This document shows positions 13,637 through 62,969 of a stretch of 64,000 bases of DNA, piece after piece (the first letter of the stretch is position 1; the number at the start of each line of letters is the position of its first letter). This DNA comes from Escherichia coli. Its GTDB lineage: Bacteria; Pseudomonadota; Gammaproteobacteria; Enterobacterales; Enterobacteriaceae. A program made the translations under genes and the position numbers. The DNA lies in NCBI RefSeq assembly GCF_003991155.1, contig NZ_CP031293.1. One strand, given 5' to 3'. The notes under the pieces are model-generated. The model had not been told where the DNA came from and did no database searches. It saw only the letters and a list, made by a program, of their open reading frames with translations.

Positions 13637-13748
13637 CACAGCGATAGCTTTGTGATTGGTCCGTTATTTTCTGGCTGATATTTGAGCGTATAACAGTGTT
13701 ATACAGTGGTATACTGTATGGATATTACTCACTGATATGGTCTTTGCA

Positions 13749-14192: not shown

Positions 14193-14271
14193 ACATGAGT
14201 GCCCATTGGAAAGCTGCTTGGGCCAATACCTTTATACACCAGCAGGTGGTGACGATAGGTGAGGATTAGGC

Positions 14272-15735: not shown

Positions 15736-15885
15736 GATAATCTCACCTAAGAATTGCGTGGTTATAAATTATCATCACTGTAAGCGAATGTAAGCCACAG
15801 GCTCGTAATGTGATATGGAATTTTGATAGTTGGCTCAATATCAGTATGCCGTCCTTGGCTATTATGGTTTTGTTAGTTAGAGCGT

Positions 15886-19922: not shown

Positions 19923-20599
19923 TAGAATCCAAGCCCCCCAACAAGACCAATAAGCCCACCACCAATAGCGCCGGCCGCAGTTCCTATTCCAGGAACAACG
20001 GAACCAAGTTGCGCACCCGCTAAAGCGCCTGATGCTGCCCCACCAATACCACGCGCAAGACTGGATGGCTGCTGCGCCTGACCTGCACGAATAGCGCCAA
20101 GCCCCTGCAAGAGTTGTCCGGTATTATTGGCGTAGTTTTGCCCTGCCGTTGCCTGCCCTGATGCCGCATTCATCCCGACATTTAGCAGGTTTCCATAATT
20201 TTGCATTTGCCCACTAAGCCAATTGTTATAAAGCATGGGCGCAATGGAAGATAACTGGTTACTGGTAGCTGTTGAGCCAAGCCCCCCGGTAGCTTCTGCT
20301 GAGACAAGGTTCTGATAACGGGCCTGATCTGCCTGTGTTTTATATAAACCAGAACCAAAGAAATCATTCGCGGCTTTATTCTGCCCTTCCAGAGTCATCA
20401 GTCCTTGCAGTTGTTGTAAAGCAGGCAATCCGACTTCTGCATACGGCTTGAGATTATTCATCACCGTATTCCACTGCTCGCGCTGCAAATCAATTGCCTG
20501 CTGCTGGGCCTTCGCCTGAGCTTTAGAGGCACCACCATCACCGCCTTTTTCGTATACGGCACGATTGAGATGTTTATGAGCTATATGGGTAATTAACAT
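19922..20599 (-). CDS. Gly/Ala-rich protein with hydrophobic C-terminus, ejection-protein-like
   Basis: 225 aa; C-terminal GxxxG-rich hydrophobic segment; contiguous with neighbours. Confidence 0.45.
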   Translation of the reverse strand: MLITHIAHKHLNRAVYEKGGDGGASKAQAKAQQQAIDLQREQWNTVMNNLKPYAEVGLPALQQLQGLMTLEGQNKAANDFFGSGLYKTQADQARYQNLVSAEATGGLGSTATSNQLSSIAPMLYNNWLSGQMQNYGNLLNVGMNAASGQATAGQNYANNTGQLLQGLGAIRAGQAQQPSSLARGIGGAASGALAGAQLGSVVPGIGTAAGAIGGGLIGLVGGLGF

Positions 20600-21054
20600 T
20601 CGCTGAATTCCTTATATTGTTGCCGAGTTAACTGATAAAGCGTTACGCCGACGGGTTTACCACATCTGATATAAGCATCATCAAGGTGACCAACACGGGT
20701 AGCGCCAAGCAAACGGATAATTGCCCGTCCATATTTTGTGGTGTCAGGAACCATAGTGATGCTGTTAAGGAATGGTGAGTTTTCGAGAAGCCATTTGCAG
20801 AATAATCGATGCCCTTGCAGTGCATATTCACCACGGAATCCGGGGTCGTACACCGCATGGCATTCAACAACGCTATGCCAGAAGTTACGCACTTCATGAA
20901 CGCCAGCCAGCACTAATCCTTCGTAGATGCCGAGATATACCGCATCAGGCTTGATGTAGTACGTGTGCCCCGGCTCAACAATATTTTCGGTATTGCCTGG
21001 CTCGTTAAGAAAGGCCTGTAATCGCACAGGGTTATCAATAAATTTTAGTTCCAT
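20593..21054 (-). CDS. Hypothetical protein (153 aa), first large gene of the module
   Basis: ORF-track; overlaps next gene start. Confidence 0.4.
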   Translation of the reverse strand: MELKFIDNPVRLQAFLNEPGNTENIVEPGHTYYIKPDAVYLGIYEGLVLAGVHEVRNFWHSVVECHAVYDPGFRGEYALQGHRLFCKWLLENSPFLNSITMVPDTTKYGRAIIRLLGATRVGHLDDAYIRCGKPVGVTLYQLTRQQYKEFSEC

Positions 21055-21070
21055 GCGATGCCATCCATTT

Positions 21071-21232
21071 TCACATACAGCCTGCCAGCGCCTTATCTAT
21101 TAACCCTCGTGCAATTTCATGCAGAGTTGGCGCTACTCCAATTCCTGATTTTTTACGCTGCTCTTCCTGAATTTTCTTTATCGCTTCCATTTGCTTCTCA
21201 CTTATCAATACCGGCTTTACTGAAATAGCCAT
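21071..21232 (-). CDS. Small RHH-like protein (about 53 aa)
   Basis: Internal start MAISVKPVLISEKQMEAIKKIQEE... within the 96-aa track ORF; beta-strand plus two helices pattern. Confidence 0.3.
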   Translation of the reverse strand: MAISVKPVLISEKQMEAIKKIQEEQRKKSGIGVAPTLHEIARGLIDKALAGCM

Positions 21233-21685
21233 AACGCCCCCCTTAGAACTGTATAAAACAACAGTTATTATAGTTTCACAAATCGCAATATTCATCATCG
21301 TAATTGCAAAATATGAAACAAATAGCACAAAAAAATGCCACCGCTCAGTAGCTGGTGGCATCGTTCTGTGTGTCAGGTTTTGACAGGTTTTTTATGGACT
21401 CTAAAAACTATATTTATGGTATCGCATTACTCTTCACGGCAGGTGCTTTTCAGTTCTGCCCTTGCTTCTGGCTCCATTGGTAATTTGATTCGCGATCAGC
21501 TATGCGGATGGTTTGCTGAACAGGCATAACAACTTCTCAGAGGCTGTTTTTTGAACTACGAAAATTTCGTAGTGCTCACTTTCAAAAACGTCACGCCCTT
21601 GTACACAGGATTTTACGAAAGTCTCGTAAAACACTCTCTGATGCCAGCCAGGTGTTGTGCGCATCAATTCAGTCACATTGTGTCG

Positions 21686-21799
21686 GTTCAAAATACCGTG
21701 TTGTTGGTTCAGTGTTGGTTCAATAAAAAGAATAAAATCCTTATAAAACAATACACTTTACAAATTGAACCAACTGAACCAACTGAACCAACACCTTTT
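21686..21799. repeat. Iteron cluster B (TGAACCAAC repeats), right inverted repeat
   Basis: Three tandem 9-mers at 21762-21793; degenerate copies at 21686-21722; immediately 3' of the primase gene. Confidence 0.65.
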
Positions 21800-21817
21800 C
21801 TACGCACATGAAGAAGC

Positions 21818-24577
21818 TCATTCTTCAGATGAGTTATAATCTCCTGGCTGGTAATTGAGTACATAAACGTTTATTTGTCGTCCCTGAATACGTGGTGATT
21901 TTCTTTGGTATCCACGACCGCTGTTTGGTGGGGTTAGCATCCCGGCTTTTTTCAACACTTCAGCAAACTGTTTTGCGTTGAAACCACATGCGATCTCCTT
22001 TTCAAATGTGGCCGGGAATGTGTAGAAAATCATTGGGCTTTCGTCATGTTCTCCACGCTGACGGTATCCGGCTAAATCTTTGATGGGCAAATCTGCCGGG
22101 CTGTATGGAAATGGTGCAAAACGGCTAAGCCCATAGGCATTAAGAAATGCCTCCGTTTGTTCAATAATCTGCTGATGCTCTTTGTTACCTGTGCCGAACT
22201 CGCGCAACCATGCGTTATAGCTGTGCTGTATCGCATCACGGCATGTCTGAGCATCCCAGCCTGTTACAACCTCGCCTAACAACAATGCGGCCTCCAGAAT
22301 GGCAAATCGCGCGGCTACACGGTGAACCTGCTCACCATAATCGGATGGGATCAGGCTTCTCCATCTGCTTTCGCAATCACGAACGGTTTTAATAGCCTGT
22401 TGCTGGTGGTGTGCCAGCCATTTAATCCACTCACGCCCGGACGCGCCGTGGTGATGCTGGTAAGCGTCTTTCAGTGCGTCTGCGTGCTGTTTTCCGTTCT
22501 GGTAATCGTGAAAGCGTACTGCTTTACTCAACGGAATATTCAGCAGTCGCACCAGTTGCCCGGCTTTGGTTTTTCGCCCGGAAGTAGCGATAAATGTTTC
22601 TAAATCCATTTCTCCGGTGCTGATTGCCACTGTACGCCAGCGTTTTAGATCCCGGTTTCCACCATCTTTAGCGCCTTGCAGTTTCCCTACACCGTTAAAT
22701 AACGCATAGGCAGACTGTGAAACGCTGACAGGATCAGCGCCCTGACCAACTTCATCAAGCGGCATTAGTCCGTCATTGTGGGCGGCGGCCTCATTTGCCA
22801 GCCCCAGCGCGGTTCCGTACCACGTCAGCCGCAGTAAATCAGGGTTGCCGTATAAGCTGCTCGCCACGTTTGCCGTGGTGGTCTTACCTGCGCTCGACTG
22901 CTCATAGAAATGAATGCCGAACCCGTCAGCGCCCACCAGCCCAATCAATGGCGCTGCCAGTGCTGCGCCGATCCCGGTCATCATTGAATAGTTACCAAAG
23001 GCCAGACGCGCCACGTTATCACGCCAGCTTTTCGCGCTCCCTGAGACGGTATATCCGGCTGCGGCTGAGCTTCTCCCGCTGAACAGCACAGGATTTTCAG
23101 GTGTTCCGATGATTTCCCCATCAGGCATGATGTACGCTCCGCATTGCCAGCCAGTGGCATGAGCAACACGCCACAATTCACGAGAGCCACTGCGTTGTAG
23201 CCAGTCTGCCAGTATTGCTCTGAGGCTGCTTTTGGTCGTGACATTTACCCCACCAGCTTTAAGTGTGCGCCATCCTTCACGTTCACCAATATCAGCCAGT
23301 GGAATGGCAGCGGTTGTCGGCGTTTCAGAACCAAACGACAGCCAGCGAAGAATGAGATACTGGTCTTTATCGTCTCTGCCAGTACCGATAACGCTTAACG
23401 GAGAACATAACCAGCTTTCGTTATTGATGATTTCTCCACTCTGGCTGTCAGCTCTCGGAGATACCCAATAAATACCATCCTCGCGGCTTTCTATTCTTGG
23501 TTTCAGTGGGTCGGTATCCATAACCTTAAAATCGCTTCCCTCAATGGTCTGTGGCTCCTGTTTCACGCCATTACCCTGTGGTTGGTACATTGACTTATTG
23601 AACGCTTCTGTGGCGCATTTAATGCCGTGTTTTTGGTGGTAATCATTCCAGTCTGCTTTGTGATCTGTCGGGGGTAATGCCACCCATCCAGAAACAGATA
23701 AAGCTGCTTTTTCTGCTGCTATTCTCCCCGTGTTTTGTCTTCCTTCGCTGTGGTCGTTATCCGCAGCAATGATGATTTGTGCTGAAGGAAATTTATCCCG
23801 CAGTACCTGGGCGACATATAACAGGTTCCCGGCATCAATCGCCGCCACTGTCAGCGCCTCTGGACGAATTAAATGGGCAGATAATGCCGTTGCCAGACCT
23901 TCTGCGATTAAGATGCTCTGTGTTGTTTCTGGTGCGTTTATGGCGTGATATGCCCCCCGCTTTGCTGAACCTGTCAGGAGTCTTTTTTCACCATGTGAGG
24001 TAATAGTCTGTGCTGCTGTGACTGCGCCGGATTTATCCACCAGCGCCAGCAACAGAGATCCATCGGGCAACACGGGGAATGTAAAATCACCTACCCCTTT
24101 CGCAACCAGATAATCAGATTTGCCGTTTACAGCCTTTCTGCGCATGTCATCAAACTGACGGGAAAACGTATCCCGTCTTTGTTGTTCGTCCTTCTCTGCC
24201 CTTTTCAGGCGCTCCTGTTCGCGTCGCTGGCGCTCGGTTTCCAGTTGTTCCCGTTTCTGGCTGGTGGCTTCTGGTGTTTCCGTTGTCCGGTAATCAATAC
24301 CCAGAACATCAGCGGCAAGAAGCGCCGCCTCTGTTGTGTCGCAGTTATTTACGCGTTTAATTAAATCCAGCCCATCACCAGCGCCGCACTGATTACAGAT
24401 GAAGCTACCGCGCCCGTTGTCATCGAACCGGAATCGATCTTTGCCCCCACATGCAGGGCAGGGAGCATGACGGCGCGGAGAGTCAGGGACATTTATGTTC
24501 AGGCAGCCCAGCACATGAGGCCAGTTGTTTTCAGACGCACTGATAACCTGACGGATAAGATCAATGTTTCGCATCAC
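21818..24577 (-). CDS. P4 alpha-like primase-helicase (zinc finger + toprim + P-loop NTPase)
   Basis: 919 aa; CPACGG..CNQCG zinc-binding motif, toprim-like IIIAADNDH, Walker A SSAGKTTT and Walker B LMPLDEV. Confidence 0.8.
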   Translation of the reverse strand: MMRNIDLIRQVISASENNWPHVLGCLNINVPDSPRRHAPCPACGGKDRFRFDDNGRGSFICNQCGAGDGLDLIKRVNNCDTTEAALLAADVLGIDYRTTETPEATSQKREQLETERQRREQERLKRAEKDEQQRRDTFSRQFDDMRRKAVNGKSDYLVAKGVGDFTFPVLPDGSLLLALVDKSGAVTAAQTITSHGEKRLLTGSAKRGAYHAINAPETTQSILIAEGLATALSAHLIRPEALTVAAIDAGNLLYVAQVLRDKFPSAQIIIAADNDHSEGRQNTGRIAAEKAALSVSGWVALPPTDHKADWNDYHQKHGIKCATEAFNKSMYQPQGNGVKQEPQTIEGSDFKVMDTDPLKPRIESREDGIYWVSPRADSQSGEIINNESWLCSPLSVIGTGRDDKDQYLILRWLSFGSETPTTAAIPLADIGEREGWRTLKAGGVNVTTKSSLRAILADWLQRSGSRELWRVAHATGWQCGAYIMPDGEIIGTPENPVLFSGRSSAAAGYTVSGSAKSWRDNVARLAFGNYSMMTGIGAALAAPLIGLVGADGFGIHFYEQSSAGKTTTANVASSLYGNPDLLRLTWYGTALGLANEAAAHNDGLMPLDEVGQGADPVSVSQSAYALFNGVGKLQGAKDGGNRDLKRWRTVAISTGEMDLETFIATSGRKTKAGQLVRLLNIPLSKAVRFHDYQNGKQHADALKDAYQHHHGASGREWIKWLAHHQQQAIKTVRDCESRWRSLIPSDYGEQVHRVAARFAILEAALLLGEVVTGWDAQTCRDAIQHSYNAWLREFGTGNKEHQQIIEQTEAFLNAYGLSRFAPFPYSPADLPIKDLAGYRQRGEHDESPMIFYTFPATFEKEIACGFNAKQFAEVLKKAGMLTPPNSGRGYQRKSPRIQGRQINVYVLNYQPGDYNSSEE

Positions 24578-24932
24578 CGTACCCCACGTGGTCTATAGCG
24601 TTTGCGATATGGCTAACCAGCATCTGCCACTTGGTTATTCCGTAATCAGTCAGCATGCCATCATTGTTTAGCCACATATCAAATTCAGCGGTTGTCGCAA
24701 GTTTCCACTTATCGCCGTGGACAGTCCTCATTGCTGGGTACATGAATGCGCAAATCAGATCACAAACATCTGACGGCTTCAGAGATGTAGTAATGGTGCG
24801 TCCCTCTGGCGTCTGAATTGCCATTTTCTCTTCACCAGTAGAATGAAGGTTATGAATCCACACAGCACCAGCAATCTTTGCCACCTGCTCTCCGATTGCG
24901 GAGCTAAGCGCCATTTCTGCATTTTCACGCAT
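24561..24932 (-). CDS. Hypothetical protein (123 aa)
   Basis: ORF-track; overlapping stops/starts with neighbours. Confidence 0.35.
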   Translation of the reverse strand: MRENAEMALSSAIGEQVAKIAGAVWIHNLHSTGEEKMAIQTPEGRTITTSLKPSDVCDLICAFMYPAMRTVHGDKWKLATTAEFDMWLNNDGMLTDYGITKWQMLVSHIANAIDHVGYGDAKH

Positions 24933-25266
24933 GAGAACCTCCCGCTACAGTTGCGCCCATGTCATTAACCATGCTTTGCCATATCTCACGCCCGACGTCA
25001 GTCAATCCGTCCTTAGTGACGCAACGTTCAAGAAGCTCGATCCCCACGGTTTCCCACTGCGGGTAGAACACTTTCATGGCTGCCAGTGTGTAGCTATCGA
25101 TCAGGCTGCGAACGCCTTTTACTCCATTGACGATTTCCACACGGACGGCCTCGCCGTCCGCATCAACCATGAAATAGTCCCCGCCGCTGGTGGAGGTAAT
25201 GTGGTTATACAGTGCCGACGCATACTTATTTGCCAGCGCATTCAGTCGGAAATTTTTAGTAATCAT
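24925..25266 (-). CDS. Hypothetical protein (113 aa)
   Basis: ORF-track. Confidence 0.35.
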   Translation of the reverse strand: MITKNFRLNALANKYASALYNHITSTSGGDYFMVDADGEAVRVEIVNGVKGVRSLIDSYTLAAMKVFYPQWETVGIELLERCVTKDGLTDVGREIWQSMVNDMGATVAGGSHA

Positions 25267-25276
25267 GGCTCCATCC

Positions 25277-25879
25277 TCAGTGCGTCACTGGTTCCGCTGG
25301 CATGCCGTTTTCATTCAGTTCAGCTATAAAGCTGTTGTGAAGTTCAGCAAGCGTTTCACGCCCAAATGGAGTCAGTGCTCCTTGTTCCACATCCATCATG
25401 GCTCTGTAGAAAATAATGGCGCGTTCTGTGCCAGACTCGATGCCAAAACGTTCTATCATCGCGCCCTCAATGTTGTTTGCCATAGCGAGGCGCTCTGCTA
25501 CTGGATACAGCGGCATGGCGACGATGCCGTTGGAATAAACAGCCACTTCGGAAGGATTGCCAGTATCATCAATGATGCTGACAGTGCCGTTTTCCTCTCT
25601 CATTTCCAGCATGAATACTGTTGCGATCAGCCATCTCCACATAATGACGTTATGCTGTGATGTGTAATCGAAATATCCCTGGTTACCGCCATCGGCAATA
25701 GCGAGATGTATTGACATACCTTCATCTGGTTTATCGTCATAATCCCCGGCATCCAGACGATTTACGGCATCAATATATGAGATGGCCTCAACGCGTTCTG
25801 TCATGCCATCGTTGCTGCGGTACATGATGTTTACGCCGTCAGGCGTTGCTTCTGCATGGAAAGTTAAGAAATTATTCAT
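25277..25879 (-). CDS. Hypothetical protein (about 200 aa)
   Basis: ORF-track frame 25277..25984; likely start at internal Met (MNNFLTFHAE...). Confidence 0.35.
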   Translation of the reverse strand: MNNFLTFHAEATPDGVNIMYRSNDGMTERVEAISYIDAVNRLDAGDYDDKPDEGMSIHLAIADGGNQGYFDYTSQHNVIMWRWLIATVFMLEMREENGTVSIIDDTGNPSEVAVYSNGIVAMPLYPVAERLAMANNIEGAMIERFGIESGTERAIIFYRAMMDVEQGALTPFGRETLAELHNSFIAELNENGMPAEPVTH

Positions 25880-26093
25880 GTTTCGCCTCGCCTGAATGAT
25901 TCTGTAACTCATATTTGCCCAACAATTCGTCCGCTTCCTGAATAGCTTCTGGTACGCCATTGAGCAGTGACATAACCGCGCCAATCATTAACTTGTCTCT
26001 GTTGCTGGGGCTGGCCCCTTCAAGCCAGAACCCTAAAACAGTCTGAACCTGTTCGATGCGACATTGCGCTTCAATGAGCTGGATGTTGGTCAT
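25872..26093 (-). CDS. Hypothetical small protein (73 aa)
   Basis: ORF-track; 4-nt overlap with upstream gene. Confidence 0.3.
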   Translation of the reverse strand: MTNIQLIEAQCRIEQVQTVLGFWLEGASPSNRDKLMIGAVMSLLNGVPEAIQEADELLGKYELQNHSGEAKHE

Positions 26094-26353
26094 TTCGCAC
26101 TCTCCACATCGATTAAACCGATATCTATCAGGGAGGTAACTTTTTGTAGCCAGCTATTGATTACTGTCGCCTGTTCCCCTCCCACCGAGGGAACAATCTC
26201 ATTCATCACATGAACCAGACCTGTGCGCGCTCTGGTAAGCCGTTCAGTCGCGCAATCTGCGGGAGTGAATGTGTCTGGATATGGCTCTTCACGCCCCAGC
26301 AATGATTCAATTTCCAGCTCACACGGATGACGATAAATTAAGTTGATATTCAT
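26090..26353 (-). CDS. Hypothetical small protein (87 aa)
   Basis: ORF-track; ATGA-type overlaps. Confidence 0.3.
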   Translation of the reverse strand: MNINLIYRHPCELEIESLLGREEPYPDTFTPADCATERLTRARTGLVHVMNEIVPSVGGEQATVINSWLQKVTSLIDIGLIDVESAK

Positions 26354-26544
26354 TTTTCACCCCCAAGAATTACCAGCTCGGCACGGGCATCGTTAACCAA
26401 AGATGAGCACGCTTTAATCGCATCCACGACATCAGCAGCGTCCATTTCTTCAGCCGAAAGACTGACAGCAACCAGGACAGCCGCTGCTTGCTCGATTAAT
26501 TGAAGTGCGGACGTAAGTCGAGGGGCATTAATTGAGTTATTCAT
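26350..26544 (-). CDS. Hypothetical small protein (about 64 aa)
   Basis: Internal start [10 protein letters not shown]... in track ORF 26350..26601. Confidence 0.3.
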   Translation of the reverse strand: MNNSINAPRLTSALQLIEQAAAVLVAVSLSAEEMDAADVVDAIKACSSLVNDARAELVILGGEK

Positions 26545-27604
26545 TGGTTGCCCCCGTTTTTCCTGGCATTTCGCCACCTTCCAGCAGGAAATGAACGTCA
26601 CGAACGGCGAGATCCAATATCGCGAGTAACGCCTTCAGTCTTTCGTCTCGTGAGGGAGAGTTGCTCACCAGAATGTCGTTAATCACTTCTGTCAGTGTGA
26701 TGATCTGGCTTGTGCGTTCGAGGGGATCCATATGCACATCGTAGGTTTTAATCATGAGCCACCTCCATGCGGATACGACCAGCAAAAAAGCAGACGTGAT
26801 CGCGCACCAGAGAACGGCGAGCATCGCGTTCAGACTCGGCAGCAATATGATGAATTTTGGCGGTAATTGTCGAGCAATCGCGGCGAACTGCGGCGATAAT
26901 CCAGATAAATTGCGGTTTTTGGGTAGGGGTAGTAGCCAGCATGTGGCAGCCTCCATTCGATAGCATGTAACGCTACCACCGGAAACGCCAATTTCGCTGG
27001 TGGTAGCCCAGACAGGGTTGGCGTAACCGGCTCGAATGGATACCGGCGCTTCCGAAGAAGCCCCTGCCTGAGCCACCATTGATTGACAAAGGCGCTGGAT
27101 TATACACCAACGCCCAAAAAATGGGTGAGTCAGACCTACGACATAAAAAAAGACGCTCGGCGCGTCATATGTCGCCATTCGATTTACTAGGACGCCAATC
27201 CCGGCACCCGTTTTATGAGGTGCCTTATAACCATAAACCGTGTTGCCGCATAACGGCAAGCTCTTTTTTATGGACTCCGAAAACTCGCTATTGGAAGCAC
27301 CAGATGCACAGTACATCGCGCTCATTTCGTTAACGTCACGCGCGTGGACGAATGTTTTTGTGGAGTCACTACACGAGCGGAAGACATCATCTACGACCAG
27401 AAATTTTCTGGCGCAGCCGCTGACCTTCTCAATGCTAATATCATCGCCCGAGATTTCTGATATGGTTAAGGCATCCGTTCCGACCACCAGCAAATGATAA
27501 ACTTTGCTTGTATCTGCTGTATTAATGCCTGACTTTGCCGTCATATTGCTGGATTTTGGCGACATACCAGCCAGTGAAAATGTCTTCTTCTGGACGGTTA
27601 GCAT
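26537..27604 (-). CDS. Long open frame of uncertain gene structure (possibly a 72-aa gene 26537..26755 plus upstream gene)
   Basis: 355 codons without stop; composition atypical in middle part; start overlaps stop of upstream gene. Confidence 0.25.
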
Positions 27605-27780
27605 TTGTTAACCTCCGCGAACTCCTTCATGAAACGCGCCAGCGGTTGTACGCATGGCGATTGATACCCGTCGCGATAAAACGTCACTCGGTTGTGAGAC
27701 ACGCTTTCGACAGTAACGAGTGCTCCGTGGGCATCTTTGTAGCGTTTTTGTGGTTGTGGTGTTCCTGTTGGCTTAGACAT
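27598..27780 (-). CDS. Hypothetical small protein (about 60 aa)
   Basis: Internal start MSKPTGTPQPQKRYKD... with GGAGGTG Shine-Dalgarno upstream. Confidence 0.3.
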   Translation of the reverse strand: MSKPTGTPQPQKRYKDAHGALVTVESVSHNRVTFYRDGYQSPCVQPLARFMKEFAEVNKC

Positions 27781-28606
27781 TGACCACCTCCAGACGCTTG
27801 GCGAGCCAGCGTTGCGACAGGCGGGTGAGTTCTCCTTTGCGCTGCTCATATTCCATGCCCATATCAATTAACGTGATATTGGTGCTTTCGAGATATGAGA
27901 GGTGCTCAAGCTGTTCTGCGTTCATATGGTCGCGAGGTTCGCCAGAATAGCCATTTATCCGCGCCCACTGCTTAGCAGTTAGCCCACCAAGAACGATACG
28001 AGAAATCATATTGCTCTCGTTTGTGTAGTGGTGTTGCTGCGTCGTTTTACCCATCTCGGCACGGGCCATATTCAGCGCATCGCACATTGGCTTAAAGTTG
28101 TTTGCGGCACTGAGACGGGCTTTTAGCTGGCGACGATAGCGGGCGGCGATTTCAGGCACGCTACGCTGTAATTCTTCCTCGCACTGGATGAAATAACGGC
28201 GGATAGCGCGACCCTGATCATTGCGTTCGATCATTGCCAGTTCTTTCGCCATTCCGACACTTAACAGATAGTCTTTGCCGGGTCTGCCAGAGTGCTTTAT
28301 CTTGCTGTAAGCCGCGCCATTCGGGCTTTTCCCCAAATTTGGGGAAATTGTTTTATGGACTGAGTAATCGTGCCCAATGGTGAAGTCATATTCAGAGATG
28401 CGATCAGTGATCCATGTAGAGAAGTCTTTTCCCACGCCCAACGCTTTGTGTAACGCTTTTGCGCTAACAATATTGGTTTCACGCCCACCGATATGACCAG
28501 GAATAACCGGGACAATTGCGGCAAATTCATTACCGTTAATTGTGCTCAGAGAGGCGTTCAGATGAGGGGCGGCCTCAGAAATTAATCTGCTTTTTTCGAT
28601 GTTCAT
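27773..28606 (-). CDS. Phage antirepressor-like protein (AntA/KilAC-type)
   Basis: 277 aa; N-terminus ..INGNEFAAIVPV.. and ..DYLLSVGMAKELAMIERNDQGRAIRRYFIQCEEE.. resemble antirepressor domains. Confidence 0.5.
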   Translation of the reverse strand: MNIEKSRLISEAAPHLNASLSTINGNEFAAIVPVIPGHIGGRETNIVSAKALHKALGVGKDFSTWITDRISEYDFTIGHDYSVHKTISPNLGKSPNGAAYSKIKHSGRPGKDYLLSVGMAKELAMIERNDQGRAIRRYFIQCEEELQRSVPEIAARYRRQLKARLSAANNFKPMCDALNMARAEMGKTTQQHHYTNESNMISRIVLGGLTAKQWARINGYSGEPRDHMNAEQLEHLSYLESTNITLIDMGMEYEQRKGELTRLSQRWLAKRLEVVNV

Positions 28607-28618
28607 TTTCAGTCTCCG

Positions 28619-29050
28619 TTAGGCGGCGTTAAACGCGTCCGGGTAGAGTTTCAGAATGTCGGCAATTTCCTGCTGAGAAAGTCCGTTGTGATCATTTATG
28701 TTCGCAAGATGGTTAATATGAGTGATCACTTTCAGAACATCACCACGGCAGGAGAAACGGTAGCGAAGGTGTGTTCCGATACCATCAGGATTCTTTTCGT
28801 CGATACGCTCCAGAGTGATTCCAAGCTGGCGTTCTAACTCTGTTGCATAGTTACGACCAGAAGACAGACGGCAGTAGCGAAGAATGTCATTTTCTGTCCA
28901 TCCCTCTATACCAGTACGCAGCATATAGACTCTGGCACGATGCTTTTTCGGTGTGCGCTTTGGTGCTTGAAGGGATTTTGTAAGGGGCGTAACATCAGAT
29001 ACACGAATATCTGAATTAGCCGCCTGTAATGGGCGGTTTTTCTTTTCCAT
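28619..29050 (-). CDS. Hypothetical protein (143 aa)
   Basis: ORF-track; immediately downstream of alpA. Confidence 0.35.
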   Translation of the reverse strand: MEKKNRPLQAANSDIRVSDVTPLTKSLQAPKRTPKKHRARVYMLRTGIEGWTENDILRYCRLSSGRNYATELERQLGITLERIDEKNPDGIGTHLRYRFSCRGDVLKVITHINHLANINDHNGLSQQEIADILKLYPDAFNAA

Positions 29051-29253
29051 CAGGCCACCTCGTCTCTAGATTCTAATATACACTTCTCAATCCATTCATC
29101 TATTTCAGACTCAACAAAAGCAATTGCCCGACTTCCAATTTTTACCTGTTTAGGGAACCTCCCCTGACTAATAAGACGATAAATCCATGCTTTGCTATAA
29201 CCAGTTCGCCTTTGAACTTCAGAGAGACGAATTAATGAATTGTAATTAGCCAT
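29050..29253 (-). CDS. alpA: AlpA-family transcriptional regulator/excisionase-like
   Basis: 67 aa MANYNSLIRLSEVQRRTGYSKAWIYRLISQGRFPKQVKIGSRAIAFVESEIDEWI; classic AlpA HTH. Confidence 0.75.
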   Translation of the reverse strand: MANYNSLIRLSEVQRRTGYSKAWIYRLISQGRFPKQVKIGSRAIAFVESEIDEWIEKCILESRDEVA

Positions 29254-29680
29254 TTATTAATATCCTGTACTAATGACGCAATAACCCCCTCCTGCAACGA
29301 ATGGCGAGAGTTTTATTTGCGTCAAATGTCGAATACGCCAAAGACCACAATATGAAAAACATATTGCGGTCTTTTATAAAAGATAGTCAGATTGTTTTGG
29401 TTTGTTTGCTCCACAAGGGTAGAGCTACCCTGCATTTCGGCAGGATCACGCTATTAGGCGTGACATCCAGTAGTTTTAAAGAACAATTGCGCTTTGTCAG
29501 CGCCAAAGCCTGTTAAAGAACATTCCGCTTTTCAGCAGCGTAGAAGGCTCAATACACCTTCGTTTATAAAAGAGCGATTGCCCTTCTCCAGGGCTAACTG
29601 TTAAATAGCAATCCTCTGTGAGTTTTTATCAATCTACTCCCCTATACTTTAGTAAACCTCTGTATACTTGTCCAGTTGTT

Positions 29681-30895
29681 TCATGCGTGTTTTTCAAACA
29701 CCATATGCACCACATTTCCGCCATGCTCGAGAGAATCCATATAGTCGGCATACCATTGAAGCATCTCCCGCCGTCCATCCAGATATTGCGCATGGTTGTA
29801 TGTGCCACGAATTGAGTTCTTATCAACGTGAGCGAGCTGCGTTTCTATCCACGCGGTGTTATAGCCCTGCTCATGCAAAATCGTGCTCATAGTGTGTCGG
29901 AACCCATGACCAGTTACACGTCCAGCGTAGCCAATGCGCTTAAACACTTGGTTTATGCTGGCCTCACTCATTGTTTTCCTTGGATCATTGCGCCCGGGAA
30001 ACATAAGAGGGTAATTGCCTGTTATTTCTCTAATCTTCCCAATAAGCGAAAGAGCCTGCTCAGACAATGGCACAATATGAGGCCGCCGCATTTTCATACG
30101 TGAAGCGGGTATCTCCCATATAGCCTTGTTGAAATCAATTTCATCCCATAATGCGCCACGTAGTTCGCCAGTTCGCAAGCCGGTGATAATCAGTAGACGA
30201 GCCGCCATAACAACCAATGCGCTTCCTGAGTAACTGGACAATGCCTTGAAAAAATCAGGTAATTCTTTGGTCGTAAGGAAAGGGTAATGATTAGATTCAT
30301 GGCCTTGCATCGCGCTAGTAAGGTCTGGTGCAGGGTTATACTCTGCGCGACCAGTGACTATTGCATAGCGGAAAACTTCCCCGCACCGCTGCCTCACTTT
30401 TTTGGCTTTTTCTGTCGCACCGCGCCCCTCGATGCGCCGCAGCACATTCAGAAGTTCAAGTGGTTTGATTTCGGCGATTGGTTTTTTGCCAATGTAAGGG
30501 AACACATCTTTGTTGAAGGCTTCGAGGATGTCTGAAGCATAACCAGCAGACCATTTTTTTAATTTGCTGCTGTGCCACTCAAGGGCAATATCTTTGAAGG
30601 TGTTGTTTAACTGCGTTTCCCGGGCAATCTTTTCCTCTCGTTTCGCTTCCATCGGATCGATACCACCAGCGATACCTCTTTTCGCATCTTCACGTTTTGC
30701 CCGAGCATCGGCTAGAGTAACCTCAGGATACACACCTAGTGCCAATAGCTTCTCTTTACCAGCTACACGATATTTAAGTCGCCAGTATTTACCTCCATTA
30801 GGTTTTACCAAGAGATACAAACCGCCACCATCGGCCAGCTTGTAAGCCTTCTCTTTTGGCTTGGCTGTGTCTATTTGACGGGCATTGAGTTTCAC
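29681..30895 (-). CDS. P4-type tyrosine integrase, thrW-adjacent
   Basis: 404 aa; N-terminal arm-binding domain (..KLADGGGLYLLVKPNGGKYWRLKYR..) and catalytic HGFRHT...Y motifs; adjacent to tRNA. Confidence 0.85.
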   Translation of the reverse strand: MKLNARQIDTAKPKEKAYKLADGGGLYLLVKPNGGKYWRLKYRVAGKEKLLALGVYPEVTLADARAKREDAKRGIAGGIDPMEAKREEKIARETQLNNTFKDIALEWHSSKLKKWSAGYASDILEAFNKDVFPYIGKKPIAEIKPLELLNVLRRIEGRGATEKAKKVRQRCGEVFRYAIVTGRAEYNPAPDLTSAMQGHESNHYPFLTTKELPDFFKALSSYSGSALVVMAARLLIITGLRTGELRGALWDEIDFNKAIWEIPASRMKMRRPHIVPLSEQALSLIGKIREITGNYPLMFPGRNDPRKTMSEASINQVFKRIGYAGRVTGHGFRHTMSTILHEQGYNTAWIETQLAHVDKNSIRGTYNHAQYLDGRREMLQWYADYMDSLEHGGNVVHMVFEKHA

Positions 30896-30965
30896 TTGGG
30901 GGTACCTCCACTAAACCGAACAGCAAATACCCCCATAAGTACCCCCATCTGACCGTAGATTTTGA

Positions 30966-31043
30966 GGGACTTTAGTAGACGTCAAAAGACGAACGGGGCT
31001 TTAATACGCGGATTATAAGGGGTTTTGAAAGACTTTAGTAGAC
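30966..31043. promoter_or_regulatory. attL arm region with direct repeats GACTTTAGTAGAC x2
   Basis: Copies at 30967-30980 and 31031-31043 between integrase start and thrW; putative arm-type binding sites. Confidence 0.4.
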
Positions 31044-31060
31044 TTGGGGAGATGTTTGAA

Positions 31061-31136
31061 TGGTGCCGATAATAGGAGTCGAACCTACGACCTTCGCATT
31101 ACGAATGCGCTGCTCTACCAACTGAGCTATATCGGC
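31061..31136 (-). tRNA. thrW: tRNA-Thr (anticodon CGU)
   Basis: Reverse complement GCCGATATAGCTCAGTTGGTAGAGCAGCGCATTCGTAATGCG...GGTTCGACTCCTATTATCGGCACCA. Confidence 0.9.
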
Positions 31137-43365: not shown

Positions 43366-44256
43366 TTAACGCGTTCGCTGTGAAAGCACCTGCTGCTTAT
43401 CCAGCTTTTGCACCAGCGGCTGCACCACTTTATCCCCATGCTGACCAAAGTATTGATACAGCGTATCGGACGCGCTTTTAGTCAGCACCATAATCTCAAT
43501 GCGCCGGTTGCCCGCGCTTTGCGGATTTTTCGCGTCCAGCAGCATCTGGTCCGCCATTGCGCTCACCTGCATCACTTTATCTTCCGGCATTCCTGCCTCT
43601 TCCAGCACCCGACGAGCCGAAAGCGCGCGGTCACCCGAAAGGTTCCAGTTGTTGTAGATATTGTTTTTGTAGGCCATCGCATCGGTATGCCCGGTAATAA
43701 TAATTTTGTTATCGAGCGAGTCGAACACTGGCGCGAGCTCCACCAGCAGCGTTTTAAAGAACGGCATAATCTGCGCGCTGCCACGTTCGAACATATTGCG
43801 ATTCTGGTCGTCTTTAATCAGCACGCGTAATCCCTGCGGGACAATCTCCATCTCCAGATTCGCTTCCATATGCGCATCACGGGCAATGGTGTTGATACTG
43901 GTTGCCAGCTCACCAAGCTCGGTGGCGGATTTCTTCTTCAGCAGCGCCGTTTTCTCGTTGACGTCGCGCGCTTTTTTCTCCGTTTCTTCCGGCACCGCCA
44001 CGGTGGCAGGTTTTGACGGATGAGACGGGCTGATTTTATTTAACGGCGACAGCCCACCACCGTTAAAAATCGACTGCCCGTGCAGCGCGGCGATAATGCT
44101 TTCACGCTCGGATTTACTGACGCTGTTGACAATCAACTTTATCGTCGTCACCAAAGGGGCCGAGCGTATTTCCGAGGTTTCTGCCCGCTTTACCCTGGAC
44201 GCGATGCCCGGCAAGCAGATGGCGATTGACGCCGATCTTAACGCCGGGTTGATCAA
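43366..44256 (-). pseudogene. lafU: Flag-2 remnant: MotB-like LafU fragment (C-terminal OmpA-like domain retained)
   Basis: C-terminal ..IIITGHTDAMAYKNNIYNNWNLSGDRALSARRVLEEAGMP... MotB/OmpA-like; N-terminus lacks the expected TM anchor; frame overlaps lfhA remnant. Confidence 0.55.
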
Positions 44257-45835
44257 TCAGGCGCAGGCGCAGACCCGGCGTAAAGATGTTGCCAGCGAGG
44301 CCGATTTCTACGGCGCGATGGACGGGGCATCGAAGTTTGTGCGCGGGGATGCCATCGCCGGGATGATGATTCTGGCGATCAACCTGATCGGCGGCGTCTG
44401 TATCGGGATCTTCAAATACAACCTGAGCGCCGACGCCGCCTTCCAGCAGTATGTGCTGATGACCATCGGCGACGGGCTGGTGGCGCAGATCCCTTCCCTG
44501 CTGCTCTCCACCGCGGCGGCGATTATCGTCACCCGCGTCAGCGACAACGGCGATATCGCCCATGACGTGCGCCACCAGCTGCTGGCAAGCCCGTCGGTGC
44601 TCTACACCGCCACCGGGATCATGTTTGTGCTGGCGGTGGTGCCGGGGATGCCGCATCTGCCATTTTTGCTGTTCAGCGCCCTGCTTGGCTTTACCGGCTG
44701 GCGGATGAGCAAACGCCCGCAGGCGGCGGAGGCGGAAGAGAAAAGCCTCGAAACACTGACCCGCACCATCACCGAAACCAGCGAGCAACAGGTCAGTTGG
44801 GAAACCATTCCGCTGATCGAGCCTATCAGCTTAAGTCTCGGCTACAAGCTGGTGGCGCTGGTGGACAAAGCGCAGGGGAACCCGCTCACCCAGCGGATTC
44901 GCGGCGTGCGGCAGGTGATATCCGACGGCAACGGCGTGCTGCTACCGGAGATCCGCATTCGGGAAAACTTCCGCCTCAAGCCCAGCCAGTACGCCATTTT
45001 CATCAACGGCATTAAGGCTGATGAAGCGGATATTCCGGCGGATAAACTGATGGCCCTGCCCTCCAGTGAAACCTACGGTGAGATTGACGGCGTGCTGGGG
45101 AACGACCCGGCGTATGGGATGCCGGTCACCTGGATCCAGCCCGCGCAGAAGGCGAAGGCGCTGAATATGGGGTATCAGGTGATCGACAGCGCCAGCGTAA
45201 TTGCCACACATGTGAATAAGATTGTGCGCAGCTATATTCCTGACCTCTTTAACTATGACGATATTACGCAGTTGCATAACCGCCTGTCGTCGATGGCACC
45301 GCGCCTGGCGGAGGATTTGAGCGCGGCGCTCAATTACAGTCAGTTGCTGAAAGTGTACCGGGCGCTGCTGACCGAAGGCGTTTCCCTGCGCGATATCGTC
45401 ACCATCGCCACCGTGCTGGTTGCCAGTAGCGCGGTGACCAAAGATCATATTCTGCTGGCGGCTGATGTGCGCCTGGCGCTGCGGCGCAGCATTACCCATC
45501 CGTTCGTTCGCAAACAGGAGCTGACGGTGTATACGCTGAATAATGAGCTGGAAAATCTGCTGACCAACGTAGTGAATCAGGCGCAACAGGGCGGCAAAGT
45601 GATGCTCGACAGCGTGCCGGTGGACCCGAATATGCTTAACCAGTTCCAGAACACGATGCCGCAGGTGAAGGAGCAGATGAAAGCGGCGGGGAAAGACCCT
45701 GTGCTGCTGGTGCCTCCGCAGTTGCGCCCTTTGCTGGCGCGCTACGCAAGGTTGTTTGCGCCGGGGCTGCATGTGCTGTCGTATAACGAAGTGCCGGACG
45801 AGCTGGAGTTGAAGATTATGGGGGCGTTGATGTAG
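44096..45835 (+). pseudogene. lfhA: Flag-2 remnant: FlhA-like LfhA fragment (N-terminally truncated)
   Basis: 579 aa FlhA-like C-terminal region (..FVRGDAIAGMMILAINLIGG..) without the N-terminal membrane domain. Confidence 0.6.
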
Positions 45836-45945
45836 GTATCCGGCATCTGCGCACAACCGCCGGATGCGGCGTGAACGCCTTATCCGGCCTACCGTTCAGG
45901 CACGATTCGTAGGCTAAGCGTAAGCGCATCCGGCATCGGCGCGCA
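45836..45945. repeat. REP/BIME elements
   Basis: GCCGGATGCGGCGTGAACGCCTTATCCGGCCTAC and related REP palindromes. Confidence 0.6.
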
Positions 45946-46539: not shown

Positions 46540-46620
46540 GTAGGCATGATAAGACGCGCCAGCGTCGCATCAGGCATCGGTGCACAATTGCCGAATCCGG
46601 CGTGAACGCCCTCTCCGTCC
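46540..46620. repeat. REP elements
   Basis: GCATCAGGCATCGGTGCACAATTGCCGAATCCGGCGTGAACGCC REP-type palindromes. Confidence 0.55.
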
Positions 46621-50447: not shown

Positions 50448-50686
50448 GAGGATATCCTTCAGCATAAATGTAATAGACAAAATGCAGTGTACCGGATACC
50501 GCCAAAAGCGAGAAGTACGGGCAGATGCTATGACCAGGACTTTTTGACCTGAAGTGCGGATAAAAACAGCAACAATGTGAGCTTCGTTGTAATTATATTG
50601 TAAACACATTGCTAAATGTTTTTACATCCACTACAACCATATCATCACAAGTGGTCAGACCTCCTACAAGTAAGGGGCTTTTCGTT

Positions 50687-53131
50687 ATGATGATTTTGAG
50701 TATTCTCGCTACGGTTGTCCTGCTCGGCGCGTTGTTCTATCACCGCGTGAGCTTATTTATCAGCAGTCTGATTTTGCTCGCCTGGACAGCCGCACTCGGC
50801 GTTGCTGGTCTGTGGTCGGCGTGGGTACTGGTGCCTCTGGCCATTATCCTCGTGCCATTTAACTTTGCGCCTATGCGTAAGTCGATGATTTCCGCGCCGG
50901 TATTTCGCGGTTTCCGTAAGGTAATGCCGCCGATGTCGCGCACTGAGAAAGAAGCGATTGATGCGGGCACCACCTGGTGGGAGGGCGACTTGTTCCAGGG
51001 CAAGCCGGACTGGAAAAAGCTGCATAACTATCCGCAGCCGCGCCTGACCGCTGAAGAGCAAGCGTTTCTCGACGGTCCGGTAGAAGAAGCCTGCCGGATG
51101 GCGAATGATTTCCAGATTACCCATGAGCTGGCGGATTTGCCGCCGGAGCTGTGGGCGTATCTTAAAGAGCATCGCTTCTTCGCGATGATCATCAAAAAAG
51201 AGTACGGCGGGCTGGAGTTCTCGGCTTATGCCCAGTCTCGCGTGCTGCAAAAACTCTCCGGCGTGAGCGGGATCCTGGCGATTACCGTCGGCGTGCCAAA
51301 CTCATTAGGCCCGGGTGAGCTACTGCAACATTACGGCACTGACGAGCAGAAAGATCACTATCTGCCGCGTCTGGCGCGTGGTCAGGAGATCCCTTGCTTT
51401 GCACTGACCAGCCCCGAAGCGGGTTCCGATGCGGGCGCGATTCCGGATACCGGGATTGTTTGCATGGGCGAGTGGCAGGGCCAGCAGGTGCTGGGGATGC
51501 GACTGACCTGGAACAAACGTTACATTACGCTGGCACCGATTGCGACCGTGCTTGGTCTGGCGTTTAAACTCTCCGACCCGGAAAAACTGCTGGGTGGCGC
51601 AGAAGATTTAGGTATTACCTGTGCGCTGATCCCGACCACCACGCCGGGCGTGGAAATTGGTCGTCGCCACTTCCCGCTGAACGTACCGTTCCAGAACGGA
51701 CCGACGCGCGGTAAAGATGTCTTCGTGCCGATCGATTACATCATCGGCGGGCCGAAAATGGCCGGGCAAGGCTGGCGGATGCTGGTGGAGTGCCTCTCGG
51801 TAGGCCGCGGTATCACCCTGCCTTCCAACTCAACCGGCGGCGTGAAATCGGTAGCGCTGGCAACGGGTGCGTATGCGCACATCCGCCGTCAGTTCAAAAT
51901 CTCTATTGGTAAGATGGAAGGGATTGAAGAGCCGCTGGCGCGTATTGCCGGAAACGCTTATGTAATGGATGCTGCGGCATCGCTGATTACCTACGGCATT
52001 ATGCTCGGTGAAAAACCTGCCGTGCTGTCGGCTATCGTTAAGTATCACTGTACCCACCGTGGGCAGCAGTCGATTATTGATGCGATGGATATCACTGGTG
52101 GCAAAGGCATTATGCTCGGGCAAAGCAACTTCCTGGCCCGTGCTTACCAGGGCGCACCGATTGCCATCACCGTTGAAGGGGCTAACATTCTGACCCGCAG
52201 CATGATGATCTTCGGACAAGGAGCGATTCGTTGCCATCCGTACGTGCTGGAAGAGATGGAAGCGGCGAAGAACAATGACGTAAATGCGTTCGATAAACTG
52301 CTGTTCAAACATATCGGTCACGTCGGTAGCAACAAAGTTCGCAGCTTCTGGCTGGGCCTGACGCGCGGTTTAACCAGCAGCACGCCAACCGGCGATGCCA
52401 CTAAACGCTACTATCAGCACCTGAACCGCCTGAGCGCCAACCTCGCCCTGCTTTCTGATGTCTCGATGGCGGTGCTGGGCGGCAGCCTGAAACGTCGCGA
52501 GCGTATCTCGGCCCGTCTGGGGGATATTTTAAGTCAGCTTTACCTCGCCTCTGCCGTTCTGAAGCGTTATGACGACGAAGGCCGTAATGAAGCCGACCTG
52601 CCGCTGGTGCACTGGGGCGTACAGGATGCGCTGTATCAGGCTGAACAGGCGATGGATGATTTACTGCAAAACTTCCCGAGCCGCGTGGTTGCCGGGCTGC
52701 TGAATGTGGTGATCTTCCCGACCGGACGTCATTATCTGGCACCTTCTGATAAGCTGGATCATAAGGTGGCGAAGATTTTACAAGTGCCGAACGCCACCCG
52801 TTCACGTATTGGTCGCGGTCAGTACCTGACGCCGAGCGAGCATAACCCGGTTGGTTTACTGGAAGAGGCGCTGGTGGATGTGATTGCCGCCGACCCAATT
52901 CATCAGCGGATCTGTAAAGAGCTGGGTAAAAACCTGCCGTTTACCCGTCTGGATGAACTGGCGCATAACGCGCTGGCGAAGGGGCTGATTGATAAAGATG
53001 AAGCCGCTATTCTTGTGAAAGCTGAAGAAAGCCGTCTGCGCAGTATTAATGTTGATGACTTTGATCCGGAAGAGCTTGCGACGAAGCCGGTAAAGTTGCC
53101 GGAGAAAGTGCGAAAAGTTGAAGCCGCGTAA
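50687..53131 (+). CDS. fadE: Acyl-CoA dehydrogenase
   Basis: 814 aa from [20 protein letters not shown]... Confidence 0.9.
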
Positions 53132-53173: not shown

Positions 53174-53647
53174 TTATTTAAAATTAAAGCCATCCGGATG
53201 GTTTTCCAGGCTGCCGGTCAACGCCGCGAACAGCACCGTTTTACCATCAATAGAAAGCGCATCGTTCACATTCAACCAGGTGAGTTTCTCTTGCGACGTT
53301 TTCTCATCAATGGTCGAGAACAGCCCCGTCATCTGATTAGATTTCTCGGACCACATCACAGCGATACGTTGCGAGCCACAGTCATGCGGTTTGCACGCGC
53401 TCATCACCTGATACGTCTCATCTCCCAACGTTACGGTTTGTGCAGGGGTATAAGTACCGCCTTTCATCACCCAGGCAGGCAGCTTATGCCCTTGCACCAT
53501 CTGATTAAACGCAGCTTTGGTGGTTTCGCCCTTTGCAAGGCTGCTAATGGTTAAATCATCCTGCGCCATTGCACTGGTGGCGATGACCAGAGCGGCGACT
53601 GTCGTTATTGCCTTAAACATCATTCCTCCCGAGCTTATCCTGCCCAT
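53174..53647 (-). CDS. ivy: Inhibitor of vertebrate lysozyme
   Basis: 157 aa with signal peptide and CKPHDCG loop. Confidence 0.85.
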   Translation of the reverse strand: MGRISSGGMMFKAITTVAALVIATSAMAQDDLTISSLAKGETTKAAFNQMVQGHKLPAWVMKGGTYTPAQTVTLGDETYQVMSACKPHDCGSQRIAVMWSEKSNQMTGLFSTIDEKTSQEKLTWLNVNDALSIDGKTVLFAALTGSLENHPDGFNFK

Positions 53648-53800: not shown

Positions 53801-54571
53801 GTGCCTGGTTTGAAGATTACGCTTTTGCAGCAACCACTGGTGTGGATGGATGGCCCTGCCAACCTGCGCCATTTTGATCGTCAACTGGAAGGTATTACCG
53901 GGCGCGATGTGATCGTTCTACCGGAGATGTTTACCAGCGGCTTTGCCATGGAAGCGGCAGCTTCGTCGCTAGCACAAAATGACGTAGTGAACTGGATGAC
54001 AGCTAAGGCGCAGCAGTGCAATGCGCTGATTGCAGGCAGTGTTGCATTACAAACGGAGTCTGGTTCGGTTAACCGCTTTTTGCTGGTTGAGCCGGGCGGC
54101 ACGGTACATTTTTATGATAAGCGTCATCTGTTCCGCATGGCAGATGAGCATCTGCATTATAAAGCGGGCAATGCGCGAGTGATTGTGGAATGGCGCGGCT
54201 GGCGTATTTTGCCGCTGGTGTGCTACGACTTACGTTTTCCTGTGTGGTCGCGCAATCTCAACGATTATGACCTCGCCCTGTACGTCGCCAACTGGCCTGC
54301 TCCGCGCTCTCTGCACTGGCAGGCATTGCTGACAGCCCGCGCGATTGAGAATCAGGCGTATGTGGCGGGATGCAATCGCGTCGGCAGCGATGGCAACGGC
54401 TGCCATTATCGTGGTGACAGCAGGGTGATTAATCCACAGGGCGAGATTATCGCTACTGCCGACGCGCATCAGGCAACGCGCATTGATGCGGAGCTGTCGA
54501 TGGTGGCATTGCGGGAATATAGAGAAAAGTTTCCGGCATGGCGGGATGCGGATGAATTCACATTTCGTTAG
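53801..54571 (+). CDS. yafV: Nitrilase-superfamily omega-amidase
   Basis: Probable GTG start (PGLKITLLQQPLVWMDG...); nitrilase-like fold. Confidence 0.75.
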   Translation: MPGLKITLLQQPLVWMDGPANLRHFDRQLEGITGRDVIVLPEMFTSGFAMEAAASSLAQNDVVNWMTAKAQQCNALIAGSVALQTESGSVNRFLLVEPGGTVHFYDKRHLFRMADEHLHYKAGNARVIVEWRGWRILPLVCYDLRFPVWSRNLNDYDLALYVANWPAPRSLHWQALLTARAIENQAYVAGCNRVGSDGNGCHYRGDSRVINPQGEIIATADAHQATRIDAELSMVALREYREKFPAWRDADEFTFR

Positions 54572-54633
54572 AGGGTGAATATGGCTACGAGATAAGTTTC
54601 GTGGCTATTTTTCTCTGGAACTTAAACGACGAA

Positions 54634-54668
54634 AGCCCGAATCAGTAATGATTCGGGCTTTCTGAATA
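54634..54668. terminator. Hairpin terminator between yafV and aspV
   Basis: AAAGCCCGAATCAGTAATGATTCGGGCTTT followed by CTGAATATT. Confidence 0.5.
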
Positions 54669-54669
54669 T

Positions 54670-54746
54670 TGGCGGAACGGACGGGACTCGAACCCGCGAC
54701 CCCCTGCGTGACAGGCAGGTATTCTAACCGACTGAACTACCGCTCC
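54670..54746 (-). tRNA. aspV: tRNA-Asp (GUC)
   Basis: Reverse complement GGAGCGGTAGTTCAGTCGGTTAGAATACCTGCCTGTCACGCAGGGGGTCGCGGGTTCGAGTCCCGTCCGTTCCGCCA. Confidence 0.9.
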
Positions 54747-54878
54747 GCGTTGTGTTCCGTTGGGAACGAGGCGAATATTACGGATTGCCTCACCCTTCGT
54801 CAACGGTTTTTCTCATCTTTTGAATCGTTTGCTGCAAAAATCGCCCAAGTCGCTATTTTTAGCGCCTTTTACAGGTAT

Positions 54879-55610
54879 TTATGCCCGCCAGAGGCAGCTT
54901 CCGCCTTTCTTCTGCACCAGATCGAGACGGGCTTCATGTGCCGCAAGCTCTTCATCTGTCGCAAAAACAACGCGTAACTTACTTGCCTGACGCACAATGC
55001 GCTGAATTGTTGCTTCACCTTGTTGCTGTTGTGTCTCTCCTTCCATCGCAAAAGCCATCGACGTTTGACCACCGGTCATCGCCAGATAAACTTCCGCAAG
55101 GATCTGTGCATCGAGTAATGCCCCGTGTAGCGTTCGTTTACTGTTATCTATTTCGTAGCGGGCACATAACGCATCGAGGCTGTTGCGCTTACCAGGAAAC
55201 ATTTTCCTCGCCACCGCAAGGCTATCGGTGACCTTACAGAAGGTATTGGTCTTCGGAATATCGCGCTTAAGCAACGAAAACTCGTAGTCCATAAAGCCGA
55301 TATCGAACGCTGCGTTATGGATCACCAACTCCGCGCCGCGGATATAGTCCATGAACTCATCGGCTACCTCGGCAAACGTGGGCTTATCGAGCAAAAATTC
55401 ATCGGCAATACCATGTACGCCAAAGGCTTCCGGATCCACCAGCCGATCGGGTTTGAGATAAACATGGAAGTTATTGCCCGTCAGGCGACGGTTCACCACT
55501 TCAACGGCACCAATCTCAATGATCTTGTGGCCTTCATAGTGCGCACCAATCTGGTTCATACCGGTGGTTTCGGTATCGAGAACGATCTGGCGTGTAATTG
55601 CAGTGCTCAT
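54879..55610 (-). CDS. dnaQ: DNA polymerase III epsilon subunit (proofreading exonuclease)
   Basis: 243 aa from [17 protein letters not shown]... Confidence 0.9.
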
Positions 55611-62892: not shown

Positions 62893-62969
62893 TGGCGGAA
62901 CGGACGGGACTCGAACCCGCGACCCCCTGCGTGACAGGCAGGTATTCTAACCGACTGAACTACCGCTCC
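62893..62969 (-). tRNA. aspU: tRNA-Asp (GUC), distal gene of an rrn operon
   Basis: Identical tRNA-Asp sequence to the copy at 54670-54746; lies just downstream of 5S rRNA. Confidence 0.9.

Follow-up and report, generated by a model that had tools for sequence, protein, structure and literature searches.

Organisation of the aspV locus

The locus studied here belongs to a stretch of 64,000 nucleotides of the Escherichia coli chromosome (hereafter the window), in which this segment runs in reverse orientation relative to K-12. Along the window, fadE (50609-53131, plus strand), ivy (53174-53647, minus strand) and yafV (53801-54571, plus strand) precede aspV, an intact gene for tRNA-Asp(GUC) located at 54670-54746 on the minus strand by ARAGORN, with Rfam in agreement. 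The yafV gene, which bears this name in the annotation of near-identical genomes, has 256 codons and encodes a 2-oxoglutaramate amidase. On the 5′ side of aspV the conserved core neighbour is dnaQ (54879-55610, minus strand), encoding the epsilon subunit of DNA polymerase III, at a distance of 132 bp and across a spacer collinear with that of K-12. Past dnaQ, the ORFs together with the annotation of a near-identical genome gave the order rnhA, yafS, gloB, mltD and aspU, the latter being a second tRNA-Asp gene (62893-62969) that is followed by 5S and 23S rRNA genes. The stop codon of yafV (TAG, 54569-54571) ends at position 54571, and the 3′ end of aspV is found 98 bp past it; positions 54572-54878 correspond exactly to this 98-bp yafV-aspV spacer, the tRNA gene and the 132-bp aspV-dnaQ spacer. 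No substantial ORF was present in the ORF list for this interval, where the sole frames overlap the tRNA gene. The tRNA results and the ORFs bear out the claim of an earlier note on this DNA that aspV lies directly between yafV and dnaQ, with no intervening island. The presence of extra RNA genes at the locus was considered and rejected, as a scan of the whole window at the Rfam gathering thresholds returned just the tRNA here.

The same note had stated that only a terminator hairpin separates yafV from aspV. It was right in that the spacer contains hairpins and no accessory ORF, but the hairpins are two rather than one. The first, on the yafV side, was detected in the terminator scan on the plus strand and consists of a stem of 12 pairs with a 4-nt loop (54581-54608) followed by TTTTTCTCTGG, whose T-run extends to 54618. 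This element (54581-54618) conforms to the terminator rule and would terminate yafV transcription. The second hairpin (54631-54662, minus strand) starts 7 nt beyond the CCA end of aspV and has a perfect 14-bp stem with a 4-nt loop. On the aspV strand this stem is followed by GUCGUUUA, with 4 U in 8 nt, and the terminator scan made no call; the hairpin is probably either the aspV terminator or a stem that stabilises or protects the 3′ end of the tRNA transcript. The predicted fold of the 98-nt spacer reached −29 kcal/mol, in comparison with −13.0 ± 2.9 kcal/mol for shuffled sequences (z = −5.6). In the aspV-dnaQ spacer, upstream of aspV, a sigma-70-like promoter match (TTGACG, 17 nt, TAATAT) was identified on the minus strand at 54775-54803.

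Traces of a former element were searched for at the junction. The 3′-terminal 20 nt of aspV had copies just in aspV and aspU, even when 3 mismatches were allowed, so no partial tRNA copy was found; the two tRNA-Asp genes are the same over these 20 nt, the part to which their direct comparison was limited. The spacer showed no notable direct repeats, no att-like duplicates and neither an integrase nor an IS fragment; that is, no scar of a former element was observed in it.

Other mobile or degenerate loci were observed elsewhere in the window. The thrW hotspot (tRNA-Thr CGU, 31061-31136, minus strand) is occupied, unlike that of aspV, by an element of about 20 kb (approximately 11300-31136) that, according to the annotation of near-identical genomes, carries a tyrosine integrase beside the tRNA gene, a P4-like TOPRIM/DUF927 primase, phage DNA-ejection proteins, a PerC-type regulator and SocA/Abi-type genes. 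Rfam matches to the C4 antisense RNA (26996-27083) and to isrK (27146-27223) fall inside this element. The genome WP2-W18-ESBL-08, 99.5% identical elsewhere, differs over the distal part of the element (approximately 11300-19760), which is therefore mosaic as a whole. Close to its distal edge, a full-length Rfam match to the IS009 RNA (191.7 bits; 10067-10268, minus strand) is placed between ykgJ and yagU by correspondence with the annotation of EcE.ESBL.COL. By correspondence with the closest genome, the region around 43400-45900 contains a remnant of the Flag-2 (lateral flagella) cluster, made up of lafU and an N-terminally truncated lfhA/flhA pseudogene, as in K-12. The yafQ gene of the dinJ-yafQ pair is frameshifted according to the annotation of that same closest genome, and a match to naRNA4, a REP-derived nucleoid-associated RNA, was found near rayT (46543-46620; 60.4 bits, with a gathering threshold of 59.5).

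Comparison with K-12 and with occupied sites

The order of genes in the MG1655 record is dnaQ, aspV, yafT, ykfM, yafU (pseudogene), yafF (pseudogene), yafV, ivy and fadE, with yafT, ykfM, yafU and yafF contained in an aspV-yafV gap of 2,411 bp, in agreement with what the earlier note had stated of K-12. BLAST comparison of the window with K-12, the check that the note had proposed, showed that the organisation of the two is not identical. The flanks (dnaQ-aspV and, at the opposite end, yafV-ivy-fadE) are shared as two collinear blocks with 98.4% and 97.6% identity. These blocks end at window position 54663 (K-12 237014), 7 nt past the CCA, and at window position 54558 (K-12 239432), 13 nt within yafV, and the intervening sequence amounts to 104 bp in the window (54559-54662) vs 2,417 bp in K-12 (237015-239431). 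The final 13 nt of yafV (54559-54571) thus belong to the empty-site allele alone. Although the breakpoint on the side of the island falls within the gene, the protein keeps its length, with the YafV C-terminus reading DADEFTFR* in the window and DADEFRLW* in K-12. The stem-loop after aspV also differs, K-12 having its own aspV terminator. Since the 104-bp segment cannot be aligned to K-12 and both the yafV end and the stem-loop are different, the window carries a distinct allele and not the K-12 arrangement minus four genes.

The possibility that the spacer retains part of the K-12 cluster was also considered and rejected; the best local alignment of the 104-bp segment to the K-12 insert, on both strands, covered 27 nt with 5 mismatches, which is at chance level. 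The left arm of the hairpin shares 11 nt, ACGAAAGCCCG, with occupied alleles at their yafV-proximal end. This identity may be left over from the hairpin, although with such a length no argument can be built on it.

The K-12 cluster is itself a minority state and looks like what is left of a larger island. The exact K-12 yafU/yafF/yafV junction was present in 374 of 5,426 complete E. coli genomes, against 756 for the empty site, while the aspV-yafT-ykfM-yafU arrangement was present in 2,976 genomes. The K-12 aspV-yafT segment matched that of the O157:H7 strain F3113 at 99.1%, and yafF is, by annotation elsewhere, a remnant of an ISAs1-family transposase, of which many genomes have one beside yafV. 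Because a yafT-like gene adjoins aspV in the O157 and AH19E045 islands, and an ISAs1 remnant lies beside yafV in other genomes, we infer that the K-12 cluster corresponds to the two ends of a type VI secretion system (T6SS) island whose middle part has been deleted.

Inspection of occupied genomes revealed two types of junction. In O157:H7 F6667 and in the bloodstream isolate AH19E045, a T6SS island begins 7 nt after the tRNA gene, with a cluster that runs from tssF through tssM, includes Hcp and closes with a yafT-like gene of about 0.8 kb adjoining aspV. In CP52E, the one member examined among 89 hairpin-retaining genomes, AAACGACG and the hairpin are kept beside aspV and are followed by a different T6SS/VgrG/Rhs island of about 35 kb and an IS256; the yafV end of this strain is of the K-12 type. 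The corresponding breakpoints fall at 54662/54663 for the O157/K-12 type and at 54623/54624 for the CP52E type. The C-terminal tripeptide of YafV was observed to track the state of the hotspot, with TFR in genomes whose site is empty and RLW in K-12 and CP52E, the occupied genomes examined for it.

Published genomes are in agreement with these observations. T6SS islands immediately 3′ of aspV have been described in APEC O78-9 (Island 2, 32.8 kb; PMC4313913), in EHEC EDL933 (37 kb; PMC5363993), in EAEC 042 (a region of about 23 kb, Ec042-0210-0226; PMC2808357) and in LF82, whose 35-kb PAI I has 29 ORFs, 26 of them with homologues in 536, UTI89, S88 and APEC O1 (PMC2941450). Of these same 29 ORFs, three are found in MG1655 and none in E2348/69, a strain that has no T6SS (PMC2941450). 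In Salmonella, another genus in which, according to the literature, the site is occupied, the same tRNA gene is targeted by the different T6SS islands SPI-6 and SPI-20, and it is described as a known hotspot at which direct repeats are not obvious (PMC2907695). In comparison with the E. coli islands at this site (EDL933, LF82/UTI89/536, APEC O78-9 and 042), which comprise 23-37 kb with genes for T6SS, Hcp/VgrG and Rhs, the window contains none of this material: no T6SS core genes (tssA-M, hcp, vgrG) were found between its aspV and yafV, an interval of 98 bp. The proposal of the earlier note that the hotspot is unoccupied in this strain is thus supported by the lack of an island and of scars and by the presence of islands in the same interval of other strains.

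Distribution and ancestry of the empty site

To quantify the empty site, a 651-bp junction query was considered contiguous when at least 80% of it was covered in one place. On this basis the empty junction was contiguous in 756 of 5,426 complete E. coli genomes (13.9%, about one in seven), and some 86% of complete genomes were without it, frequencies that refer to a biased set of sequenced genomes and not to natural abundance. In a separate measurement, a 111-bp spacer query was also found full-length in 756 of 5,426 genomes, always as one contiguous place, and this is the count for the 104-bp allele-specific segment (54559-54662). In nearly all other genomes the match to the 651-bp query begins at query position 364-365, equivalent to window 54663-54664, and the hairpin alone, contained in the aspV-proximal 46 nt of the spacer, was detected in 89 further genomes. 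Among 35 full-length matches taken at even spacing, about 10 showed 100% identity with the window and about 25 had one difference, which in the ST131 genome examined falls at position 54635. The empty state is therefore not rare, a refinement of the earlier note.

Carriers of the empty site include EPEC O127:H6 E2348/69 and O25b:H4-ST131. Both share with the window the order fadE, ivy, yafV, tRNA-Asp, dnaQ, rnhA and the 98-bp spacer, and over the 111-bp spacer query E2348/69 is 100% identical and ST131 is one base off. Their core flanks show just 97.6% identity to the window over 10.8 kb (about 2.4% different), which places the window in a different deep lineage. These differences reach position 54543 on one side of the spacer and begin again beyond it at 54768 or 54898. 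With differences running so close up to the spacer, the empty allele sits in at least two deeply separated backgrounds, without a recent shared import tract. The nearest genome found, WP2-W18-ESBL-08, has 1 difference from the window in 12,111 bases around the locus; its site is likewise empty, with yafV, tRNA-Asp and dnaQ annotated. As a close occupied relative with which to date a gain or loss, AH19E045 was tried and discarded, its identity being 99.3% on 288 bp, yet 98.1% over 9.3 kb.

We scanned species-representative genomes with a pattern requiring the exact stem and leaving the loop free. Three Kluyvera species matched, the other matches being in unrelated phyla; no Escherichia representative matched, the pattern being too strict, given that ST131 itself is mismatched at 54635. 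In all of these Kluyvera genomes the dnaQ-linked tRNA-Asp gene has the hairpin directly on its 3′ side, and AAACGACG, the stem and the CTGAA that follows are identical to those of the window. Kluyvera georgiana shows the empty arrangement in full (dnaQ, aspV, hairpin, yafV with 81% amino-acid identity, fadE), with about 100 bp between the tRNA gene and yafV and a yafV stop codon that aligns with that of the window. It differs in its loop, TTGC vs the GTAA of the window, and in the stretch from the yafV stop to the hairpin, which shows no conservation and falls 10 nt short of that of the window; no match to ivy was found in the K. georgiana locus sequence compared. The outgroup is not uniform, since K. 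ascorbata and K. sichuanensis carry, between yafV and the hairpin, a 1.6-kb insert coding for a LysR-like protein. As the hairpin stem and the gene order are common to the outgroup K. georgiana, the allele of the window would be the ancestral-type, pre-insertion form rather than a new deletion junction or a deletion of the K-12 cluster.

The loop of the aspV-side hairpin (54645-54648) was found to vary, reading GTAA in the window, TTAC in CP52E and TTGC in Kluyvera. The spacer of E2348/69 has no difference from that of the window, and the single ST131 difference falls in the stem, outside the loop. The window and CP52E loops, GTAA and TTAC, are exact reverse complements of each other, as though the loop had been inverted once inside a perfect palindrome rather than substituted twice. 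Both forms of the loop are present among the hairpin-only genomes, as rows with 100% and 95.7% identity.

Origin and significance of the unoccupied hotspot

The organisation of the locus, its breakpoints, the population frequency of the junction, the absent scars and the conservation in Kluyvera are very probably explained by a site that corresponds to the unoccupied, ancestral-type form of the E. coli aspV island hotspot. An alternative that we consider unlikely is that the ancestor of the window strain had an aspV island, lost afterwards by exchange with an empty-site donor or by clean excision. Some of the evidence is compatible with such a loss: empty and occupied sites are intermixed among related strains, with both present within B2 (PMC2941450), K-12 shows that internal deletions of the island do occur, and the spacer has 0-1 differences from the B2 strains vs 22-23 of 771 sites in yafV. 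However, about 2.8 differences would be expected over the 98 bp, and finding none is just weakly unexpected (P ~0.06). Furthermore, the flanks remain divergent until some 30 bp before the spacer, on the side of yafV, and again from some 20 bp past aspV, so close that this argues against a recent import tract from B2 empty-site donors. As for excision, a de novo deletion would not recreate a Kluyvera-like hairpin together with the native yafV end, and no scar was found. It has to be noted that B2 is mixed, with 536, UTI89 and S88 occupied and E2348/69 empty (PMC2941450), and the history of the site therefore involves several gains, losses or allelic exchanges.

It is far less probable that aspV owes its hotspot character to the hairpin itself, as the target of recombination, with both hairpin edges serving as entry points for islands and the empty allele representing the intact recombination site. 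Both classes of E. coli island break at the hairpin edges, the LysR insertion of Kluyvera ends about 8 nt from the stem, the loop exists in two mutually inverted forms, and E. coli and Kluyvera have the same stem in an otherwise diverged spacer, all of which would fit this proposal. Nevertheless, ordinary selection on a unit formed by the tRNA gene and its terminator gives the same pattern, no integrase, direct repeats or hairpin-specific recombinase were observed at the junctions, and direct repeats are also missing at SPI-20 (PMC2907695). Finally, an assembly or sampling artefact, in which a real island had been collapsed or dropped from the sequence, is practically discarded by the occurrence of the same junction in 756 independently finished genomes, one of them at 1 difference in 12,111 bases, and by its structure, a coherent pair of terminators and not a chimeric join.

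Under the preferred reading of an unoccupied, ancestral-type hotspot, aspV would be transcribed from its own promoter in the dnaQ-aspV spacer, and its transcript would probably stop at, or be shielded by, the strong conserved hairpin 7 nt past the CCA. The yafV gene, converging on aspV, would stop at its own hairpin and T-run. In most E. coli strains the interval has been filled by T6SS islands of 20-37 kb or by their remnants, the majority of genomes without the empty site having an island of roughly 33-37 kb. One class of island replaces the hairpin and all that follows, up to and including the final 13 nt of yafV, and brings a new aspV terminator, GCCGCAAGATTTTTAATTTTGCGGTTTTTTT in the K-12/O157 type. 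A second class lies just beyond the hairpin. We suggest that aspV and its hairpin are conserved together, as a unit, so that insertions may survive either beyond the hairpin, as those of the CP52E type and the LysR gene of Kluyvera would have done, or by putting a terminator of their own in its place. Selection on such a unit would suffice to produce junctions at the edges of the stem. In this scheme, based on sequence comparison, the action of the hairpins as terminators and the ancestral status of the allele, as opposed to a fresh deletion junction, are the parts that we infer.

The difference described here is an ordinary strain polymorphism of a kind already known, as aspV is a published hotspot (PMC2907695) and strains without the island have been tabulated (PMC2941450), and it has little importance beyond annotation. 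In this regard, K-12, the usual reference, is not in the empty state and would represent a collapsed remnant of an island. The locus of the window provides a clean pre-insertion reference, which helps to delimit island boundaries in other genomes and to type the hotspot by PCR. The strain itself has no T6SS island at aspV, in contrast to the majority of E. coli, and this fits a lineage-level trait common to ST131 and E2348/69.
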